DNA from: Escherichia coli | Lineage (GTDB): Bacteria; Pseudomonadota; Gammaproteobacteria; Enterobacterales; Enterobacteriaceae | Reading direction: 5' to 3' (one strand) | DNA length: 64,000 bases | Assembly: GCF_030384885.1 (NCBI RefSeq) | Contig: NZ_CP128613.1 | Shown: positions 1,675 to 59,990 of the stretch, piece by piece | Position numbering within the stretch: the first letter of the stretch is position 1 | Layout of the letters: every line of letters starts with the position of its first letter | Notes under the pieces: generated by a model | What the model saw: only the letters and a program-made list of their open reading frames with translations | The model's database searches: none | Told to the model about the DNA's origin: nothing | Position numbers and translations under genes: made by a program

Positions 1675-1708
1675 AAGGCCAGTCTCTTATGAGGCTGGCC
1701 TTTTTCTT
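1675..1708 (+). terminator. Rho-independent terminator after rpoS
   Basis: GC-rich hairpin ggccagtctc/gaggctggcc (1677..1700) followed by TTTTTCTTTT. Confidence 0.7.
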
Positions 1709-1778
1709 TTGTATGGGGAGTTGGTGTGTTTCGTCGCCTGGATAAGACACGTCAGCGTCCCATCCGGCAATCAACATC

Positions 1779-2186
1779 CTATTTGCTCATCATCTTGCGC
1801 ACCAGCTGCATAAACAGCTCCTGCTCTTCTCCACTCAAACGCCCCAAAAATTCCTCATCCACACTGTCGCCAATCGGTATCGCCGCAGCAAGTACCTTTT
1901 CTCCTTCGGCAGTCAGCCAGACAAAGCGTCGCCGCTTATCAGCGGTGTCATGTTCACGTCTGACTAAGCCACGATTTTCCATTCTTGCCAACATTTCTGC
2001 CAGCGTTGCTTTGGTGCTGACGGCTGCTTCCATCAGTGCCACCTGTTCGATACCAGGTTTATCAGCAATGGCGCGCATCACCGCGTACTGTGGTTTGGTC
2101 AGGTCAGGTAACTCGTGCTGCCAGCGGGCCGTATGCTGCTGAAAAAGCTGTCGTAACTGATGGAACGCTTTATTTCGTAACGCCAT
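1779..2186 (-). CDS. MarR/SlyA-family transcriptional regulator, 135 aa
   Basis: Size and winged-helix region typical of MarR family; divergent from the decarboxylase genes. Confidence 0.75.
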   Translation of the reverse strand: MALRNKAFHQLRQLFQQHTARWQHELPDLTKPQYAVMRAIADKPGIEQVALMEAAVSTKATLAEMLARMENRGLVRREHDTADKRRRFVWLTAEGEKVLAAAIPIGDSVDEEFLGRLSGEEQELFMQLVRKMMSK

Positions 2187-2301
2187 GTAAACTCCGGGCT
2201 AATTCTCTGTCGCTATCATAGCGGTTTTTCAGTGACGAAGAAGATGTTGTTACTTTTCAATCCTTGCCGCTGTGGAAATGAAGGAGTATGTTAATAATAA
2301 C

Positions 2302-2315
2302 GTTCGTATACGAAC
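2302..2315. promoter_or_regulatory. Perfect 14-bp palindrome GTTCGTATACGAAC, candidate MarR-type operator upstream of ecdB
   Basis: Read directly; lies 18 bp upstream of the ecdB ATG in the divergent intergenic region. Confidence 0.4.
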
Positions 2316-2332
2316 AATTAAGAGAGTAAGCA

Positions 2333-2926
2333 ATGAAACTGATCGTCGGGATGACAGGGGCTACCGGTGCGCCTCTTGGTGTGGCATTACTGCAAGCGCT
2401 GCGGGAGATGCCGAATGTCGAGACTCATCTGGTGATGTCGAAGTGGGCGAAAACCACTATTGAACTGGAAACGCCTTACAGCGCTCGCGATGTTGCCGCC
2501 CTCGCTGACTTCAGCCATAACCCGGCAGATCAGGCTGCGACCATCTCTTCCGGCTCCTTTCGTACCGACGGCATGATCGTTATTCCATGCAGTATGAAAA
2601 CGCTCGCCGGTATCCGCGCTGGTTACGCCGATGGTCTCGTAGGGCGCGCGGCGGACGTCGTGCTCAAAGAAGGCCGCAAACTGGTGCTGGTGCCGCGTGA
2701 AATGCCGCTTAGCACCATCCATCTCGAAAATATGCTCGCACTTTCGCGCATGGGCGTGGCGATGGTGCCGCCGATGCCTGCCTTTTATAACCATCCCGAA
2801 ACGGTAGATGACATTGTCCACCACGTGGTAGCCCGCGTGCTGGATCAATTTGGCCTCGAACATCCTCACGCCAGGCGCTGGCAAGGGTTGCCGCAGGCCC
2901 GGAATTTTTCTCAGGAGAATGAATAA
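2333..2926 (+). CDS. ecdB: UbiX-like flavin prenyltransferase (phenolic acid decarboxylase subunit B), 197 aa
   Basis: N-terminal MKLIVGMTGATGA flavoprotein motif and UbiX/Pad1 length; first gene of a B-C-D operon. Confidence 0.8.
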   Translation: MKLIVGMTGATGAPLGVALLQALREMPNVETHLVMSKWAKTTIELETPYSARDVAALADFSHNPADQAATISSGSFRTDGMIVIPCSMKTLAGIRAGYADGLVGRAADVVLKEGRKLVLVPREMPLSTIHLENMLALSRMGVAMVPPMPAFYNHPETVDDIVHHVVARVLDQFGLEHPHARRWQGLPQARNFSQENE

Positions 2927-4353
2927 TGGCATTTGATGATTTACGCAGCTTCTTACAGGCGCTTGATGACCACGGCCAGTTACTGAAAATCAGCGAAGAG
3001 GTGAACGCGGAACCGGATCTGGCAGCCGCTGCCAACGCCACCGGGCGTATCGGCGACGGCGCGCCCGCGCTGTGGTTTGATAATATTCGCGGCTTTATCG
3101 ATGCCCGCGTTGCAATGAACACCATCGGTTCTTGGCAGAACCACGCAATTTCTCTCGGTCTGCCGCCAAACACCCCGGTTAAAAAACAGATTGATGAGTT
3201 TATCCGCCGCTGGGATAACTTCCCGATAGCCCCGGAGCGCCGTGCGAATCCTGCCTGGGCGCAGAACACCGTCGATGGCGACGAGATCAATTTGTTCAAT
3301 ATCCTGCCGCTGTTTCGTTTAAACGATGGCGATGGCGGTTTCTATCTCGACAAAGCGTGCGTGGTTTCCCGCGATCCGCTCGATCCGGATAACTTCGGCA
3401 AGCAGAACGTCGGCATCTATCGCATGGAAGTGAAGGGTAAGCGTAAGCTCGGCCTGCAACCGGTGCCGATGCACGATATCGCCCTGCATCTGCATAAAGC
3501 GGAAGAACGTGGTGAAGATTTGCCAATTGCCATCACGCTGGGTAACGATCCGATCATCACCCTGATGGGCGCCACCCCGCTGAAATATGATCAATCGGAG
3601 TACGAAATGGCGGGCGCGCTACGCGAAAGCCCGTACCCGATCGCCACCGCCCCGCTGACCGGTTTTGATGTGCCGTGGGGTTCAGAAGTGATCCTCGAAG
3701 GGGTTATCGAAAGCCGCAAACGTGAAATCGAAGGGCCGTTCGGTGAGTTTACCGGGCACTACTCCGGTGGGCGCAACATGACCGTAGTGCGCATCGATAA
3801 AGTCTCTTACCGCACCAAACCGATTTTTGAATCGCTCTATCTCGGCATGCCGTGGACCGAAATCGACTACCTGATGGGGCCTGCCACCTGCGTGCCGCTT
3901 TACCAGCAGTTGAAAGCCGAGTTCCCGGAAGTGCAGGCGGTGAACGCTATGTACACCCACGGCCTGCTGGCGATTATCTCCACCAAAAAACGCTATGGCG
4001 GCTTTGCCCGCGCAGTGGGCCTGCGTGCGATGACCACGCCGCACGGTCTGGGTTATGTGAAGATGGTGATTATGGTCGATGAAGACGTTGACCCGTTCAA
4101 CCTGCCGCAGGTGATGTGGGCGCTCTCGTCGAAAGTGAACCCGGCAGGCGATCTGGTGCAACTGCCAAATATGTCCGTGCTGGAACTCGACCCAGGCTCA
4201 AGCCCGGCGGGGATCACCGATAAGCTGATTATCGACGCCACCACGCCTGTCGCCCCGGACAACCGTGGTCACTACAGCCAGCCGGTGGTGGACTTACCGG
4301 AAACCAAAGCCTGGGCTGAAAAACTGACCGCTATGCTGGCCGCACGTAAATAA
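2926..4353 (+). CDS. ecdC: UbiD-family phenolic acid (4-hydroxybenzoate/vanillate-type) decarboxylase subunit C, 475 aa
   Basis: UbiD-family size and sequence character; start overlaps ecdB stop (translational coupling). Confidence 0.8.
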   Translation: MAFDDLRSFLQALDDHGQLLKISEEVNAEPDLAAAANATGRIGDGAPALWFDNIRGFIDARVAMNTIGSWQNHAISLGLPPNTPVKKQIDEFIRRWDNFPIAPERRANPAWAQNTVDGDEINLFNILPLFRLNDGDGGFYLDKACVVSRDPLDPDNFGKQNVGIYRMEVKGKRKLGLQPVPMHDIALHLHKAEERGEDLPIAITLGNDPIITLMGATPLKYDQSEYEMAGALRESPYPIATAPLTGFDVPWGSEVILEGVIESRKREIEGPFGEFTGHYSGGRNMTVVRIDKVSYRTKPIFESLYLGMPWTEIDYLMGPATCVPLYQQLKAEFPEVQAVNAMYTHGLLAIISTKKRYGGFARAVGLRAMTTPHGLGYVKMVIMVDEDVDPFNLPQVMWALSSKVNPAGDLVQLPNMSVLELDPGSSPAGITDKLIIDATTPVAPDNRGHYSQPVVDLPETKAWAEKLTAMLAARK

Positions 4354-4363
4354 GGAGAACAAG

Positions 4364-4600
4364 ATGATTTGTCCACGTTGTGCCGATGAACAGATTGAAG
4401 TGATGGCGAAATCGCCGGTGAAAAATGTCTGGACGGTCTACCAGTGCCAGCATTGCCTTTATACATGGCGCGATACTGAACCGCTACGTCGCACCAGCCG
4501 CGAACATTATCCCGAAGCCTTCCGTATGACGCAGAAAGATATTGATGACGCACCGATGGTGCCGAGCATTCCGCCGCTGCTGGCGGAAGGTAAGCGCTAA
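4364..4600 (+). CDS. ecdD: Small decarboxylase subunit D (BsdD/YclD-like), 78 aa, Cys-rich
   Basis: Small ORF with CPRC ... CQHC motifs immediately after the UbiD gene, as in bsdBCD-type operons. Confidence 0.65.
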   Translation: MICPRCADEQIEVMAKSPVKNVWTVYQCQHCLYTWRDTEPLRRTSREHYPEAFRMTQKDIDDAPMVPSIPPLLAEGKR

Positions 4601-20489: not shown

Positions 20490-20507
20490 AAGCAATAATT
20501 GTGCCAG
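20490..20507 (-). promoter_or_regulatory. Sigma54 (-24/-12) promoter of the hyp operon
   Basis: Minus-strand CTGGCACAATTATTGC, GG-N10-GC spacing. Confidence 0.65.
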
Positions 20508-20618: not shown

Positions 20619-20636
20619 TTGGCACAAAAAATGCTT
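20619..20636 (+). promoter_or_regulatory. Sigma54 (-24/-12) promoter of the hyc operon
   Basis: TTGGCACAAAAAATGCTT, GG-N10-GC spacing. Confidence 0.65.
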
Positions 20637-28534: not shown

Positions 28535-28701
28535 TTCGTAGACAAACATATTCACGTTTTTGAATCTGGACGTGCTATTGTGACGTTTAGACGGGTGTTT
28601 ACATATTGTGAATACTCGTGTGATCAACTACTATAGAAAAATAAAACCGAAGGAACGGGTAGTCCAGGCTTAGTCATTCAGGCGCTGATAAGGAAGTTAA
28701 A

Positions 28702-29013
28702 ATGCACATCATTTCGAAAGCGCCATTTGAAGAGTGCGCGCGCAAATATCCTAACGACGCTCTGGCTTTACACTCATTGTATCGGGTTATTAAGGAAACG
28801 GATTTTTCTACGCCAGAAGAAATGCGAACGGCGTTTCCCAACCTCGACAATTTTAAATATCGTAACAAATGGTACGTTCTGGATGTAGGCGGGAACAATC
28901 TTAGGGTTATTGCCTACATAAACTTTGTTAATAAGCGGTTCTTTGTGAAGCACATAACGAATCATGCCGAGTATGACAAACTGACACGTTACTACAGAGA
29001 GAACAGAGAATGA
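28702..29013 (+). CDS. HigB-like type II toxin (RelE/ParE-superfamily mRNA interferase), 103 aa
   Basis: Close architectural and sequence resemblance to K-12 HigB/YgjN (VFPNLDNFKY, VGGNNLRV); AAGGAAG RBS; not placed here in K-12 as I recall. Confidence 0.75.
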   Translation: MHIISKAPFEECARKYPNDALALHSLYRVIKETDFSTPEEMRTAFPNLDNFKYRNKWYVLDVGGNNLRVIAYINFVNKRFFVKHITNHAEYDKLTRYYRENRE

Positions 29014-29429
29014 CTGCTAATGCTGCACGCGCTGTTAAAGCAACAAGAGAACTGGTCAATGCAGTCCCCTTTCTGGGAGGCAGTGACTCAGAAGATGATT
29101 ATCGTGAAGCACTGGAACTGGTCGAATATTTGATTGAAGAAGATGACACCAATCCACTTATCGACTTTCTGGCGAGCCGCATTGCAGAGTATGAAAACAA
29201 CCACGAAAAGTTTGCAGAGTTCGACAAAGCCGTTGCTGCAATGCCGGTTGGCGTGGCGTTACTTCGCACGTTGATTGATCAACATAATCTGACCTATGCG
29301 GATTTGAAGAACGAAATCGGCTCTAAATCCCTGGTCAGTCAGATTTTGTCTGGACAAAGATCCCTGACGATATCCCACATTAAGGCACTTTCAGCCCGAT
29401 TTGGCGTTAAGCCGGAATGGTTTCTTTGA
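29010..29429 (+). CDS. HigA-like antitoxin with C-terminal XRE-type HTH, 139 aa
   Basis: 4-bp ATGA overlap with the toxin gene; C-terminal HTH (SLVSQILSGQRSLTISHIKALSARFGV). Confidence 0.75.
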   Translation: MTANAARAVKATRELVNAVPFLGGSDSEDDYREALELVEYLIEEDDTNPLIDFLASRIAEYENNHEKFAEFDKAVAAMPVGVALLRTLIDQHNLTYADLKNEIGSKSLVSQILSGQRSLTISHIKALSARFGVKPEWFL

Positions 29430-29440
29430 TTTTTGACAGA

Positions 29441-36911: not shown

Positions 36912-38045
36912 CTACATCGGCAAGGTTTTCAATAATCCAAACGCCTCTTTCATCCGATCCTCACTGACTACAAAGGCGCGAAGCTGGTCGGCATCGTCAA
37001 CGCCGCGCGCCACCATTCCCTGGCTTTCGGTACAAATCTGCCAGCGCAAATCCCGACGCTGGGTTTCCCCTGCCAGATGCAGCGGTAATTCCGGCGTTTT
37101 GATTTTCACCAGCATCGCCGGTAGTTTCAGCGGTGCGTTTCCACCGAGCAAGTTCTTCGCCAGCACCATCGCGCTAAGTTGAATCGGCTGCAGGAACGGC
37201 AATACCTGACCATTAATTTCTGCGCAATCGCCCAGCGCGTAAATATCGGCATTACTGGTTTGCAGATAACTATCGACGCAAACGCCGCGATTAATCGTCA
37301 GCCCGGCGCGTCGTGCCAGGGCGGTTTCCGGGCGCAGTCCGGTGGCGGCAATTACCGCATCCACTTCGGTGCTGCGCTGGCGGTCCAGCGTTGCCAGAAT
37401 GCCAGAATTCGTTTTTTCCAGCCCCTGCAACTGAGATTTCAACAGCAGATGAACGCCCATCTCCGTCAACCGATGCTGTAAGCGACTGCTTACTTCCGGT
37501 GGCATTAACGACGCCAGAATACTGGCAGCGTTGTCGATTAGCGTGACCGCTTTGCCTGCCCGACAAAAATCCATCGCCAGTTCGCTACCAATCAAACCAC
37601 CGCCTACAATCAACACCCGTCGGGCATCCCGCAGTTGTGTTTCACAGGCGCGATACTCTTGCTGACTATTTAACGTCAGCATTAACTCACGCCCAGGCAC
37701 CGGCGGGACAAAGGCGTTGGCACCGGTTGCCAGCACTAGCTTGTCGTATTGCCACTGATTATTCTGGCTTTTCACCACATGGGCTTCGGCATCGATATCC
37801 GTCACCCAGGTGTGCGGAAACAGGCGCAGATTAAACTGCTCGGCAAATTCACCCGCCGTCTGGCGGGTAAGGTCGTCGGCACGTTGCCCCTGACTGATCA
37901 CATGGCTAAGATCAGGTTTGTTGTACTCATCCATGCTGTCGGCGGCAATCAGGGTCAATGGAATACCGGTATCCTGTTTACGAATATTTTTCACCAGTTG
38001 GCGGGCGGCGAAGCCTGAACCAATGATCACAATGCCGTTGCTCAT
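36912..38045 (-). CDS. norW: NADH:flavorubredoxin reductase NorW, 377 aa
   Basis: FAD/NAD-binding GxGxxG motifs; follows norV. Confidence 0.9.
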
Positions 38046-39481
38046 TTTGCCTCCGATGCCAGTTCGTCAAAGACGTCTTTGCCGATGGAGCATTCCGGGC
38101 ACAGGAAGTTATCCGGGACTTCACTCCACGGCGTGCCTGGCGCAACGTCCTGCATTGGCTCGCCTTTTGCCGGATCGTAAATCCACTGGCAGACACTGCA
38201 CTGCATCCGCGGACCGAGATCAGCCGTCGTGGCGGCACAGGTTTCTTCTTTAACCACCGTATTCACCGTGCTTTGCGGCAGCGGCGAAAGCGCCCACTGA
38301 CGGGCAATTTCACGACCGTGTTCACGGCATAACTCCAGCGCGTCCTGGTCCGGTCGCCATTTGGCTTTCAGGCTAAGCGACATTTCGAAACCTGCATCCT
38401 GCAGGCGTGTGGAAAGACGATCCACCGCACCGCCGCTCCAGCCGTGAGAGCCGAAAGCACTGGCGCGTTTGTTACGGAAGCGTAATCCGGTCATCTCCTC
38501 CACCAGCCCGGCGATTTTCGGCATCATCACGTTATTCATCGTCGAAGTGCCAACCAGCACGCCTTTTGAGCGGAAGACATTGGTCAGGATTTCGTTTTTA
38601 TCGCTTCGGGCGACGTTGAAAATTTTCACCGCTACGCGCGGGTCGGTTTCCGCAATCCCCTGGGCGATAGCGTCAGCCATCATGCGGGTGTTATTCGACA
38701 TGGTGTCGTAGAAAATGGTGATTCTGTCTTCCTGATAATCCGCCGCCCATTTCAGGTACAGCTCGACAATTTGCGTCGGGTTATCGCGCCACACCACACC
38801 GTGAGAGGTGGCAATCATATCGACCGGCAAGTTAAAGCCCAGGATCTCGGTGATTTTCGGCGTTACCAGGCGGCTGAACGGTGTCAGGATATTGGCGTAG
38901 TAACGCTGGCACTGCTCGAAAAGCTCGGTCTGATCCACTTCATCGTTGAACAGATGCTCGTCGCAGTAGTGCTGACCGAAAGCATCGTTACTGAACAGCA
39001 CCGCGTCGCCCGTCAGGTAAGTCATCATGCTGTCCGGCCAGTGCAGCATTGGCGTTTCGACAAAAATGAGCTGTTTGCCGTTGCCGATATCCAGCGTGTC
39101 GCCGGTTTTCACCACGTTGAAATTCCACTCTGGATGATGGTGATGACCATTTATTGAGTCGATAGCGTTGGCAGTACAATAGATCGGCGTATCGGGAATT
39201 TGCGCCATCAGTTCGGTCAGCGCCCCGGCGTGGTCCTCTTCAGCATGGTTAATCACGATGTAATCGATATCCGCCAGATCGATTTCATTACGCAGGTTCT
39301 GCACAAATTCGCGGCTGAATTTATGGTCGACGGTGTCGATCAGCACGTTTTTTTCTTCGCGAATGAGGTAGCTGTTGTAGCTGCTGCCGCGCAGCGTTTT
39401 ATATTCTGTACCGTGAAAATCACGCACTTCCCAGTCACGTTGACCAACCCAATGAATGTTATTTTTCACCACAATAGACAT
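38042..39481 (-). CDS. norV: Anaerobic nitric oxide reductase flavorubredoxin NorV, 479 aa
   Basis: Metallo-beta-lactamase-like, flavodoxin and C-terminal rubredoxin (CxxC) modules. Confidence 0.9.
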
Positions 39482-39527
39482 AGCAACCTCAATTTATTCA
39501 GCGTGTTCTAAAAAGATGTCTTGTTAA

Positions 39528-39546
39528 TTGCAGATTGCGTGCCAGT
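39528..39546 (-). promoter_or_regulatory. Sigma54 (-24/-12) promoter of norVW
   Basis: Minus-strand CTGGCACGCAATCTGCAA. Confidence 0.7.
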
Positions 39547-39599
39547 TTTTTATCTAATTGTTTTTAATATATAAATTAATTTATGCTCATTAATGAGTA

Positions 39600-39655
39600 G
39601 TCAAAATGACTATCAATCAAATGGTCGATATGACAATATCTATAGTCAAATTGAC
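39600..39655. promoter_or_regulatory. Three NorR enhancer sites (GT-N7-AC)
   Basis: GTCAAAATGAC (39600..39610), GTCGATATGAC (39624..39634), GTCAAATTGAC (39645..39655). Confidence 0.75.
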
Positions 39656-39667
39656 AGTGAGGCAAAG

Positions 39668-41182
39668 ATGAGTTTTTCCGTTGATGTGCTGGCGAATATC
39701 GCCATCGAATTGCAGCGTGGGATTGGTCATCAGGATCGTTTTCAGCGCCTGATCACCACGTTGCGTCAGGTGCTGGAGTGCGATGCGTCTGCGTTGCTAC
39801 GTTACGACTCGCGGCAGTTTATTCCGCTTGCCATCGACGGACTGGCGAAGGATGTACTCGGTAGACGCTTTGCCCTGGAAGGGCATCCGCGGCTGGAAGC
39901 GATAGCCCGCGCCGGGGACGTGGTGCGTTTTCCCGCAGACAGCGAATTGCCCGATCCCTATGACGGTTTGATTCCAGGGCAGGAGAGTCTGAAGGTTCAC
40001 GCCTGCGTTGGTCTGCCGTTATTTGCCGGACAAAACCTGATCGGTGCATTGACACTCGACGGGATGCAGCCCGATCAGTTCGATGTTTTCAGCGACGAAG
40101 AGTTACGGCTGATTGCCGCGCTGGCGGCGGGAGCGTTAAGCAATGCGTTGCTGATTGAACAGCTGGAAAGTCAGAATATGCTGCCGGGCGATGCCGCGCC
40201 GTTTGAAGCGCTGAAAGAGACGCAGATGATCGGCCTGTCGCCAGGCATGACGCAATTGAAAAAAGAGATTGAGATTGTGGCGGCGTCCGATCTCAACGTC
40301 CTAATCAGTGGTGAGACGGGAACGGGTAAGGAGCTGGTGGCGAAAGCGATTCATGAAGCCTCGCCACGGGCGGTGAATCCGTTAGTCTATCTCAACTGTG
40401 CCGCACTGCCGGAAAGTGTGGCGGAAAGTGAGTTGTTTGGGCATGTGAAAGGGGCGTTTACTGGCGCTATCAGTAACCGCAGTGGGAAGTTTGAAATGGC
40501 GGATAACGGCACGCTGTTTCTGGATGAGATCGGCGAGTTGTCGTTGGCATTGCAGGCCAAGCTGCTGAGGGTATTGCAGTATGGCGATATTCAGCGCGTT
40601 GGCGATGACCGTAGTTTGCGGGTCGATGTGCGCGTGCTGGCGGCGACTAACCGCGACTTGCGCGAAGAGGTGCTGGCAGGGCGATTTCGTGCCGACTTGT
40701 TTCATCGCCTGAGTGTGTTTCCGCTTTCGGTGCCGCCGCTGCGTGAGCGGGGTGATGACGTCATTCTGCTGGCGGGGTATTACTGCGAACAGTGCCGCCT
40801 GCGGTTGGGGCTTTCCCGCGTGGTGTTAAGTTCCGGGGCGCGGAATTTATTGCAACATTATAGTTTTCCGGGAAACGTGCGTGAACTGGAACATGCTATT
40901 CACCGGGCGGTAGTGCTGGCGAGAGCGACCCGCAGCGGCGATGAAGTGATTCTTGAGGCGCAACATTTTGCTTTTCCTGAGGTGACGTTGCCGCCGCCAG
41001 AAGCGGCGGCGGTGCCTATTGTTAAGCAAAACCTGCGTGAAGCGACAGAAGCGTTCCAGCGTAAAACCATTCGCCAGGCACTGGCACAAAATCATCACAA
41101 CTGGGCTGCCAGCGCACGGATGCTGGAAACCGACGTCGCCAACTTGCATCGGTTGGCGAAACGTCTGGGGCTGAAAGATTAA
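39668..41182 (+). CDS. norR: NO-responsive sigma54-dependent regulator NorR, 504 aa
   Basis: GAF domain plus sigma54 AAA+ domain ([14 protein letters not shown]); start at internal ATG ([11 protein letters not shown]). Confidence 0.9.
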
Positions 41183-57874: not shown

Positions 57875-57887
57875 TCAATTGAAGAGG

Positions 57888-57917
57888 CCGGGCAGGTGAT
57901 ATCACCGCCCGGTTTTT
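57888..57917 (+). terminator. Rho-independent terminator after luxS
   Basis: Hairpin ccgggcaggtgatatcaccgcccgg followed by TTTTT; abuts the stop of the convergent gene at 57919. Confidence 0.75.
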
Positions 57918-57918
57918 A

Positions 57919-59031
57919 TTACCTGTCAGTCACCCGATATTCCACGCTATGTGCTTCATCAGGTTGAGGAACTTCCAGCCTTGAGGCCATCCGCATCACG
58001 ACCGCTTCAGGAACGGCATACTCGCGCCTGGCATTTTGCTGCTTCCATTGCGCCCATGGCACTTCCAGATAAACGATTTTTACTCGTGCGCCGTAAGCCG
58101 TAAACAGACTGATGAGCTGGCTACGCAGTTGGCGGGTAATGTTCGTTGCATTCCAGATGAACGGCTTTTTCTGGCGTAAAAAAACGCGCGCCTCTTCTTT
58201 TGCCTGTTGCACAATACGCCCGGTCGCGGTTTTGTCGTCCGGGCTGGCATTGATTCGCCGCCGCATATCATCAAGGCTGATAACGTCCATTCCCTGGCAC
58301 TGTTCACTGATATAGCGATCTTTGCCCATACCCGGTAAGCCACACAGCAAAATGACCTCAAAAGGTTCAGCCTCCCAGGGAACAAAATCAGGAGAACTTT
58401 GTTCATGGGTCAGATAATGCCAGCGTGCGGAATCAGACACGAACGAGCGCACTTTTCCCCAACACTGTTGCTCCTGGCAAAATAGCTCGAACAGATCGAT
58501 GCGTTCCAGCATTGATTGCTGATCATGACAATGGCGACCAAGCAGATCGGCACGAGCAAGCAAAGCGAGCAGACGCGTGTCGATACGCATTGCAGCCGTG
58601 AGCAGCAAACGCTCCGGTTCCGGACGTTCTAGTAACCATAGCGGTAACCCATGCAGACGCACCAGTGCAACAATTTGCTCGCGTAGCACGAACGGCGTCG
58701 GGATATCGCGCCATAAAATTTGTCGGGCCGTCAATTCACCCCGACGAGCATGACCAGGAGACTGAATACGTCCGTTTTCCTGCACGGTAGTACTGCGCTT
58801 TTCAACGTCATGCAATAACGCCGCCGCCCATAAAATTTCCTGCTGCTGAGCGGGGAGTTGCTGGAACTCTGGCAGAGCCACGAGTGCATTCAGCACCATT
58901 TCAGTATGCACACCAACGTCGCCTTCACCATGATGCTCCGGGTCTTGCGGCGTATTATGCATATCCTCAACCCAGCTAAAACGCTGGCGTAGCGTCGACC
59001 AGCGTTTGTCGTCGGTAAGTTGCCAAATCAT
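57919..59031 (-). CDS. HD-domain phosphohydrolase fused to a P-loop polynucleotide-kinase-like domain, 370 aa
   Basis: N-terminal HD signature ([10 protein letters not shown] ... LLHDVEK); C-terminal Walker-A-like GLPGMGKD and DVISLDD; not present between luxS and emrB in K-12 as I recall. Confidence 0.6.
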
Positions 59032-59735
59032 GACTGTTCTCCATAAGCGAACTCATGGGCCATCCGCGCCCGTCGCCAGTGGCGTTTCCAGTGCTCGGTG
59101 GTTTTGACATGATTTTTGCGTACATACTTGAAGACGTTATGCGAAAAGTCAGCGACGGAAAACGCATCACTATTCCGGCTGACAATGCCTTCCAGCGTAC
59201 AGGGTTGTCCGGTTTGCGTATCCCAGGGATCGAACGCACCGCGCGCATTGGTCAGCGCCAGAAAATCACGTTGCCAGCTTTTTTCATCATTCCCCGGCTG
59301 CGGGCCGGAGATTTCGGGAACGCAGGGGAAATCAAACAGAGCGGCGTAAAACTGCACCTCTTCCCAGCTCAGCCACATATCCTGGCAGCGAACGGCAAAC
59401 AGATAAAAATCCTGCTCCAGGGCGCGATATTCAATCGAATGAACGGCATAAAGATTTTCACCAAACAACTCCAGATCGCCGAGATCGTTTTTCAGCAGTT
59501 GCCAGCGTTGGCGAATTTTATAGGTCCATGCCGATTGTGTAGGCGCGGCATGGGAACGGGCAAACACGCCGTAGCGGTTAAGGCAGTTATTTTCACCGTC
59601 GAGTTTTTCAGTATGTACCAACTGCGAAATTGCCTGCATATCTTGCCAGTAACTGGCGTTAATGCGGTCATCGCTGGTGGTGCCAGGGGAGAAGGGGTAA
59701 TGCCAGGTTCTCCCGTATTTACGTTGGGTATTCAT
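59028..59735 (-). CDS. Small ATP-dependent nucleic-acid (RNA) ligase-like nucleotidyltransferase, 235 aa
   Basis: Covalent nucleotidyltransferase motifs in order: [41 protein letters not shown]; 4-bp overlap with the downstream gene. Confidence 0.6.
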
Positions 59736-59954
59736 AATAATCCATTATTTTTTGTGTAATAAACGTACGCCCGCGAGGGTGCGAGTTATGGGGTTAAAAA
59801 AAATGTGAGTATCACCCGCGAAAGCGAGGGCGAAGAAAAAAGAGAATTAACAACCTGAGCGAATGCTCAGAACCGGTTAATGGTGAATGGAAGAGTTTGG
59901 AGCGGCGAAAAGATACACCGTTTGAGATGATAAAACAACCGTTTACAGAATGAG

Positions 59955-59980
59955 CAAATAAAAAGGGAGCCGCAGCTCCC
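59955..59980 (-). terminator. Rho-independent terminator after emrB
   Basis: Hairpin gggagc-cgca-gctccc with U-tract on the minus strand. Confidence 0.7.
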
Positions 59981-59990
59981 TTTAACAACC

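Follow-up and report, generated by a model that had tools for sequence, protein, structure and literature searches.

The closest described relative of the locus analyzed here is the norV promoter of Escherichia coli K-12, where, as in Salmonella, NO-, NorR-, and RpoN-dependent induction of norVW has been shown and where genomic SELEX found NorR bound essentially only to the norR-norV spacer. Gardner 2003 and Tucker 2004 are reportedly the primary papers in which the K-12 norV start site and IHF footprints were mapped. Three NorR sites have been footprinted in K-12, each of them indispensable in vivo (Tucker 2010, PMC2831303), with alteration of any single site abolishing the induction of a norV-lacZ fusion (PMC2831303). 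The ATPase activity of NorR, ring formation, and open complex formation all needed the three sites plus flanking DNA, and the same work models three NorR dimers coming together as a hexamer, again with a requirement for flanking DNA (PMC2831303). In K-12, IHF is stated to bind between enhancers and start site (PMC2831303); two IHF sites are mentioned for K-12 pNorV, and an engineered pNorV lacking the second one gave a higher, leakier output (PMC11334186). Sigma-54 ChIP-seq found a peak at this promoter, on motif OS25, which EcoCyc marks as experimentally confirmed and for which a start was predicted 37 bp from norV (Bonocora 2015, PMC4591121). Annotation lists K-12 NorR as a dual regulator, and its control of both norVW and its own divergent gene has been stated (PMC11334186 and the SELEX work). 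Within the protein, R81 and the GAFTGA motif have roles in repression by the GAF domain, which acts on the GAFTGA surface (PMC2941729).

Tandem NorR sites with a sigma-54 promoter have been described in Enterobacteriaceae (Rodionov 2005, PMC1274295), and Ralstonia eutropha norA/norB as well as Pseudomonas and Vibrio cholerae hmp/fhp show the same three tandem GT-N7-AC sites, a sigma-54 promoter, and a NorR orthologue (PMC1274295). The targets in Ralstonia, Pseudomonas, and Vibrio, which were compared by description, differ in being a membrane NO reductase or a flavohemoglobin rather than a flavorubredoxin. Busch et al. in 2004 are said to deserve credit for the NorR boxes of norA/norB and hmp/fhp as well. 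NtrC at glnAp2 and TyrR at the TyrR boxes are likewise AAA+ activators assembled on multiple upstream sites; for TyrR, as for NorR, three dimer sites have been proposed to build a hexamer (PMC2831303). For NtrC, in contrast, two sites suffice and control is exerted through oligomerization, whereas NorR needs all three and is regulated when already assembled on DNA (PMC2831303).

The DNA analyzed here is a 64-kb stretch of E. coli (referred to as the window), in which positions 39482-39667 almost certainly represent the norR-norV intergenic region, i.e., the divergent control region of norR and norVW. According to the annotation, norR is a plus-strand gene, norV and norW are minus-strand genes, and 186 bp separate norR from norV. 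The features of the locus were as follows:

36912..38045, minus strand: norW, NADH:flavorubredoxin reductase, 377 aa, intact; full-length match to NF003437 (677.7 bits)
38042..39481, minus strand: norV, flavorubredoxin NO reductase, 479 aa, intact; full-length match to NF003954 (1045.6 bits)
39482..39518, minus strand: predicted norV 5' UTR, a 37-nt leader with the Shine-Dalgarno sequence GAGG at 39490..39487
39529..39545, minus strand: sigma-54 promoter CTGGCACGCAATCTGCA, with the -24 GG at 39543/39542 and the -12 GC at 39531/39530
39546..39599, minus strand: A/T-rich spacer of 54 bp between enhancers and promoter; the corresponding K-12 region is bound and bent by IHF
39600..39610, minus strand: NorR site 1 (nearest the promoter), GTCATTTTGAC, centered at -87 and 62 bp upstream of the -24 GG
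39624..39634, minus strand: NorR site 2, GTCATATCGAC, centered at -111 from the predicted norV +1
39645..39655, minus strand: NorR site 3 (nearest norR), GTCAATTTGAC, centered at -132 from the predicted norV +1 and 13 nt upstream of the norR ATG
39668..41182, plus strand: norR, NO-sensing sigma-54 activator (GAF, AAA+, HTH), 504 aa; full-length match to NF003451 (821.8 bits)

NorR, NorV, and NorW all scored far above the NCBIfam equivalog cut-offs, and Pfam returned the domains expected of them. The first 4 nt of norW coincide with the last 4 of norV, and NorV differs from its K-12 counterpart at 6 amino acids. Lesions in norV have been reported for some EHEC lineages; the norV of the window has no such lesion. 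The longest open reading frame in the norR frame, which begins at 39593 and would encode 529 aa, was rejected as norR in favor of the annotated and conserved start at 39668. Its 39593-39667 part would cross all three NorR sites, and naive ORF calling would thus bury the enhancer in a coding sequence. No RNA family was detected in the norR-norV region when the window was scanned against Rfam, and rpoN and ihfA/B are located outside the 64 kb.

Read along the minus strand of 39460-39700 from the norR side, CTTTGCCTCACT is followed by site 3, a 10-nt linker, site 2, a 13-nt linker, and site 1 (numbered after Tucker 2010, PMC2831303, with site 1 closest to the promoter), and then by the 54-nt A/T-rich spacer, the 17-nt sigma-54 element, 47 nt, and the norV ATG (39481). 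An earlier note on this DNA had proposed three sites of the GTC-N5-GAC type here, and they were found exactly where it had placed them. They are 11-bp inverted repeats with center-to-center spacings of 21 and 24 bp, and the note's description of them as intact was borne out, since all three are base-for-base identical to those of K-12 MG1655. Site 1 is also identical to the 21-bp NorR site-1 oligonucleotide GATAGTCATTTTGACTACTCA of PMC2831303, and the mutagenic primers of that study, Site2 and Site3 among them, match the window sites exactly once their engineered GG..CC changes are reverted. The distance given in the earlier note, about 85 to 140 bp upstream of the promoter, holds when counted from the predicted start (-82 to -137); counted from the -24 GG, the sites lie 57 to 113 bp upstream.

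The sequence pattern alone was distinctive only in its stricter form. The loose GT-N7-AC core had 211 matches in the 64 kb, with 4 triples within 60 bp, and is by itself not rarer than chance; the distinctive part is the triple of GTC-N5-GAC sites only. GTC-N5-GAC matched 21 times in the window, its single triple being the one between norR and norV, and such a triple arose in 1 of 200 shuffles. The form GTCA-N4-GAC had 22 matches against 6.5 expected. A candidate fourth site of the GTCA-N3-TGAC form, GTCAACGTGAC at 39434-39444 inside norV (codons 13 to 16), was rejected as a downstream NorR site and is most likely a chance match: only 25 of 78 species have the pattern, which depends on a Gly codon whose third base is free to vary (GGT 26, GGC 37, GGA 8, GGG 7). 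A perfect 12-bp palindrome, CTCATTAATGAG, was also seen at 39586-39597, 2 bp from site 1; most of the other E. coli sampled also have it, K-12 has an imperfect version (…ATGGG), and it is not conserved beyond Escherichia.

The minus-strand promoter that the earlier note had described as TGGCACG-N4-CTGCA was confirmed at 39544..39529, where it reads TGGCACG-CAAT-CTGCA, with GG and GC 10 bp apart and oriented toward norV. The 17-mer is identical to that of K-12 and to the ChIP-seq motif OS25 upstream of norV (PMC4591121). [quoted passage not shown] The pattern TGGCAC-N5-YTGCW had two exact matches in the window compared to 0.21 expected, the second being the known hypA promoter. Separately from norV, the window holds a divergent pair of FhlA-dependent sigma-54 promoters, hypA TGGCACAATTATTGCT (20491-20506, minus strand) and hycA TGGCACAAAAAATGCT (20620-20635, plus strand), which match the Bonocora 2015 ChIP-seq motifs OS28 and OS27, respectively. 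A simple sigma-70 scan for a norR promoter returned only one weak minus-strand match, no better than those in shuffled sequence.

Comparison with the characterized norR-norV region, which the earlier note had suggested as a check, gave the same 186-bp length and only 7 substitutions relative to K-12 MG1655. All three sites, the 80 bp closest to norR, and the 17-nt promoter element are free of them. Six lie in the spacer (39587, 39580, 39577, 39569, 39567, and 39556), and the seventh is a G-to-A change at about -6 (39524). The window therefore shares with K-12 norVp (Tucker 2004, 2010; Gardner 2003; Justino 2005) the sites, their 21/24 spacing, the 17-nt element, the 186-bp length, the 37-nt leader, and the gene order, and differs from it in six changes in the IHF spacer, one at about -6, and 12 residues of NorR. 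Given the identity of sites and promoter to those of MG1655, and their match to the PMC2831303 oligonucleotides and to OS25, the NorR-dependent architecture recognized in the earlier note stands, and no observation spoke against it.

The best IHF-like core in the spacer is a degenerate AAACAATTAGATA at 39563..39551, which, as in K-12, has 2 mismatches to the consensus WATCAANNNNTTR; a scan with WATCAANNNNTTR found no match with one mismatch or fewer inside the spacer. In most other genera, AAACAATTAGATA aligns with a near-perfect AATCAAnnnnTTA. IHF may bind the spacer variant of the window as well. Matches to the IHF consensus at 39611-39630 were set aside, as they lie in the poorly conserved linker between sites 1 and 2 and as the count over the whole window equals the chance expectation.

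We also compared the locus across E. coli. The window aligns colinearly, at 99.98% identity, with a human stool strain, 2013C-4282, and is ~96% identical to K-12. Divergence from K-12 at the nucleotide level was 5.7% for norR, 5.4% for norW, and 4.0% for norV; a locally divergent, recombinant norRVW segment was considered and rejected, since the whole 64 kb is ~96% identical to K-12. Three insertions relative to K-12 were observed elsewhere in the window: genes for a MarR-family regulator and hydroxyarylic acid decarboxylase B/C/D between rpoS and ygbN (1705-4599), a toxin of the HigB family and its HTH partner between hycI and ascB (28537-29438), and a pair annotated as 'ATP-binding protein' and 'RNA ligase family protein' between luxS/MicA and emrB (57878-59989).

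The norR-norV region was found in 5425 of 5426 complete E. coli genomes. A 361-bp region was matched at ≥99% by only 11 of 5426 records, and the variants of the window are common to only 11 to 15 E. coli records. The 64-bp enhancer block was identical in 3738 of 5423 records, the remainder differing by about one base; five block variants were aligned, and all of their changes fell outside the sites, either in the linker from site 2 to site 1 or directly adjacent to site 1. Across 7 compared E. coli sequences, the promoter element was invariant, and at least four spacer substitutions (39580, 39577, 39569, and 39567), as well as the one at 39524, were private to the window. Of 5428 matches to the norR-norV region, one fell on a plasmid-classed record; up to three copies were present in one genome.

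Conservation beyond E. coli was assessed with a NorR-seeded scan of one genome per species, which gave 80 loci (from Escherichia, Citrobacter, Salmonella, Kluyvera, Enterobacter, Klebsiella, Kosakonia, and others). The divergent neighbor was norV in all 78 loci with enough upstream sequence, at an intergenic length of 179 to 192 bp. Three GTC-N5-GAC sites together with TGGCAY were present in 77 of 79 sequences (the window included), in the same register at +13/+34/+58 from the norR ATG; the spacing of the sites was 21/24 bp in 76 of these 77, and the distance from the center of site 1 to the -24 GG was 60 to 63 bp in all of them. The norR-norVW region of Salmonella, Citrobacter, Klebsiella, and Enterobacter has the same sites, TGGCAC element, and distance to the GG as the window. 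The conserved columns of the alignment comprised the half-sites, TGGCAC (invariant across the 79 aligned sequences), the A-run preceding it, ACATCTT around the predicted +1, the ribosome-binding region, and GAGGTTGCTATG, with the spacer being the most variable part. The other Enterobacteriaceae do differ in that inner bases of the sites vary, about half have TTGAT at -12, and most, with AATCAAnnnnTTA, come closer to the IHF consensus than Escherichia does. The -12 element of norV followed clade: it was CTGCA or CTGCT in Escherichia, Citrobacter, Salmonella, and Kluyvera (34/77) and TTGAT, in which the canonical -12 GC becomes GA, in Enterobacter, Klebsiella, Kosakonia, Lelliottia, and others (40/77). 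Two loci lacked one site, Superficieibacter electus, with TTCATTATGAC at site 1, and a contig labeled Xenorhabdus japonica, with GTCATTTTGAT at site 3. Because loss of any single site abolishes activation in K-12, norV activation at these two loci may be impaired or differently wired.

In the regulator itself, Pfam recognized the GAF, Sigma54_activat, and AAA_lid domains. NorR differs from that of K-12 at 12 residues, none of them in the GAF domain. The iron ligands R75, D96, D99, C113, and D131 were all present, as were R81, the GAFTGA motif (262-267), and Walker A. An invariance check in 81 sequences, which covered all of these key residues but Walker A, found the ligands, R81, GAFTGA, and the recognition helix unchanged throughout. 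Two of the differences set the window apart: F372Y (codon 40781-40783) was unique to it among the 81 Enterobacteriaceae sequences, and E466K (codon 41063-41065) introduces a Lys found in none of the other sequences of this set, three of which have Arg. These changes are conservative or at a variable position. At C316S, Q380L, and C482S, it is K-12 that is the outlier, and the window has the majority state of Enterobacteriaceae.

The earlier note had argued from the intact sites that NO-responsive regulation is functional. The locus would probably support it, and the case is strengthened by a full-length NorR with all sensor and sigma-54-contact residues and by intact norV and norW. The data on binding, the need for three sites, sigma-54 occupancy, and the NO mechanism come from K-12, and by analogy the same behavior is expected in the strain of the window. 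Three NorR dimers would occupy the three GTC-N5-GAC repeats with or without NO, the DNA serving as a scaffold that drives assembly of the NorR hexamer, and sigma-54 RNA polymerase would wait in a closed complex on TGGCAC-N5-CTGCA, ~62 bp downstream of the nearest site. Bending of the A/T-rich spacer by IHF would loop the activator onto the polymerase. Binding of NO at the GAF iron would then free the AAA+ domain, and ATP hydrolysis would open the promoter for transcription of norVW from ~39518. Bound NorR may also limit the expression of norR, a role suggested by the geometry, because site 3 starts only 13 nt upstream of the norR ATG.

An architecture that is intact may still be quantitatively re-tuned, with the A/T-enriching spacer substitutions (possibly together with E466K or F372Y) altering DNA bending or hexamer stabilization and hence the basal level, threshold, or maximum of the response. 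Six of the seven differences from K-12 do cluster within 32 bp of the spacer (39556-39587), with none in the 80 bp carrying the sites, and both the private changes and the scarcity of closely matching records described above fit this idea, as do the need for site-flanking DNA for full NorR ATPase activity (PMC2831303) and the leakier engineered pNorV without its second IHF site (PMC11334186). We nevertheless regard re-tuning as unlikely: 7 changes in 186 bp are simply the background of a window that is ~4% from K-12 throughout, the spacer length and the 62-bp distance from site 1 to the GG are unchanged, and the spacer seems to tolerate change because it is the least conserved part across species and yet the system is retained everywhere. 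Similarly speculative, and in our view doubtful, is what might follow from an enhancer and core promoter that are frozen next to a spacer remodeled to higher A/T (TTTTATTTATAGAGT to ATTAATTTATATATT) and the G-to-A change at -6: the basal level or NO threshold of norVW could differ from K-12 and, more broadly, the switch between CTGCA and TTGAT at -12 might set a clade-specific tightness of the NO response.

It is far less probable that the repeats are mainly an operator for negative autoregulation of norR, with norV activation secondary or lost. Lying 13 to 66 nt upstream of the norR ATG, the sites are necessarily over the norR promoter or leader, and the K-12 annotation of NorR as a dual regulator, like the stated control of norVW and its own divergent gene, is in line with such a function. 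The two roles are compatible rather than exclusive, however, and norV activation in K-12 depends on every one of the sites (PMC2831303); moreover, the conserved sigma-54 promoter is fixed at 60 to 63 bp from site 1 in 77 species, which autoregulation alone would not require. Least credible of all is that the motifs are chance matches or a decayed remnant without regulatory activity. A core as common as GT-N7-AC, with its several triples in the window, could suggest so, but the elements are identical to functional ones of K-12 despite a background divergence of ~4%, their register is deeply conserved across species, norR, norV, and norW are all intact, and the stricter GTC-N5-GAC triple is unique in the window and was rare in shuffles.

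The NorR-dependent norV promoter of the window is thus an already known, ordinary, and intact architecture that adds nothing to the mechanism, and the forward-looking value of the locus is confined to its footprint across species and to the spacer variant that occurs naturally here. As an NO biosensor, pNorV has been put to wide reuse. The invariant register, with its 21/24-bp spacing and 60 to 63 bp to the GG, could guide the design of such sensors or tests of the DNA-wrapping model, and, if re-tuning were true, the spacer variant would be a natural counterpart of the engineered pNorV variants. NorR and norVW are a main anaerobic defense of enteric bacteria against host nitric oxide, and, on the strength of its sequence, this divergent E. 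coli lineage most likely keeps an NO-inducible flavorubredoxin.
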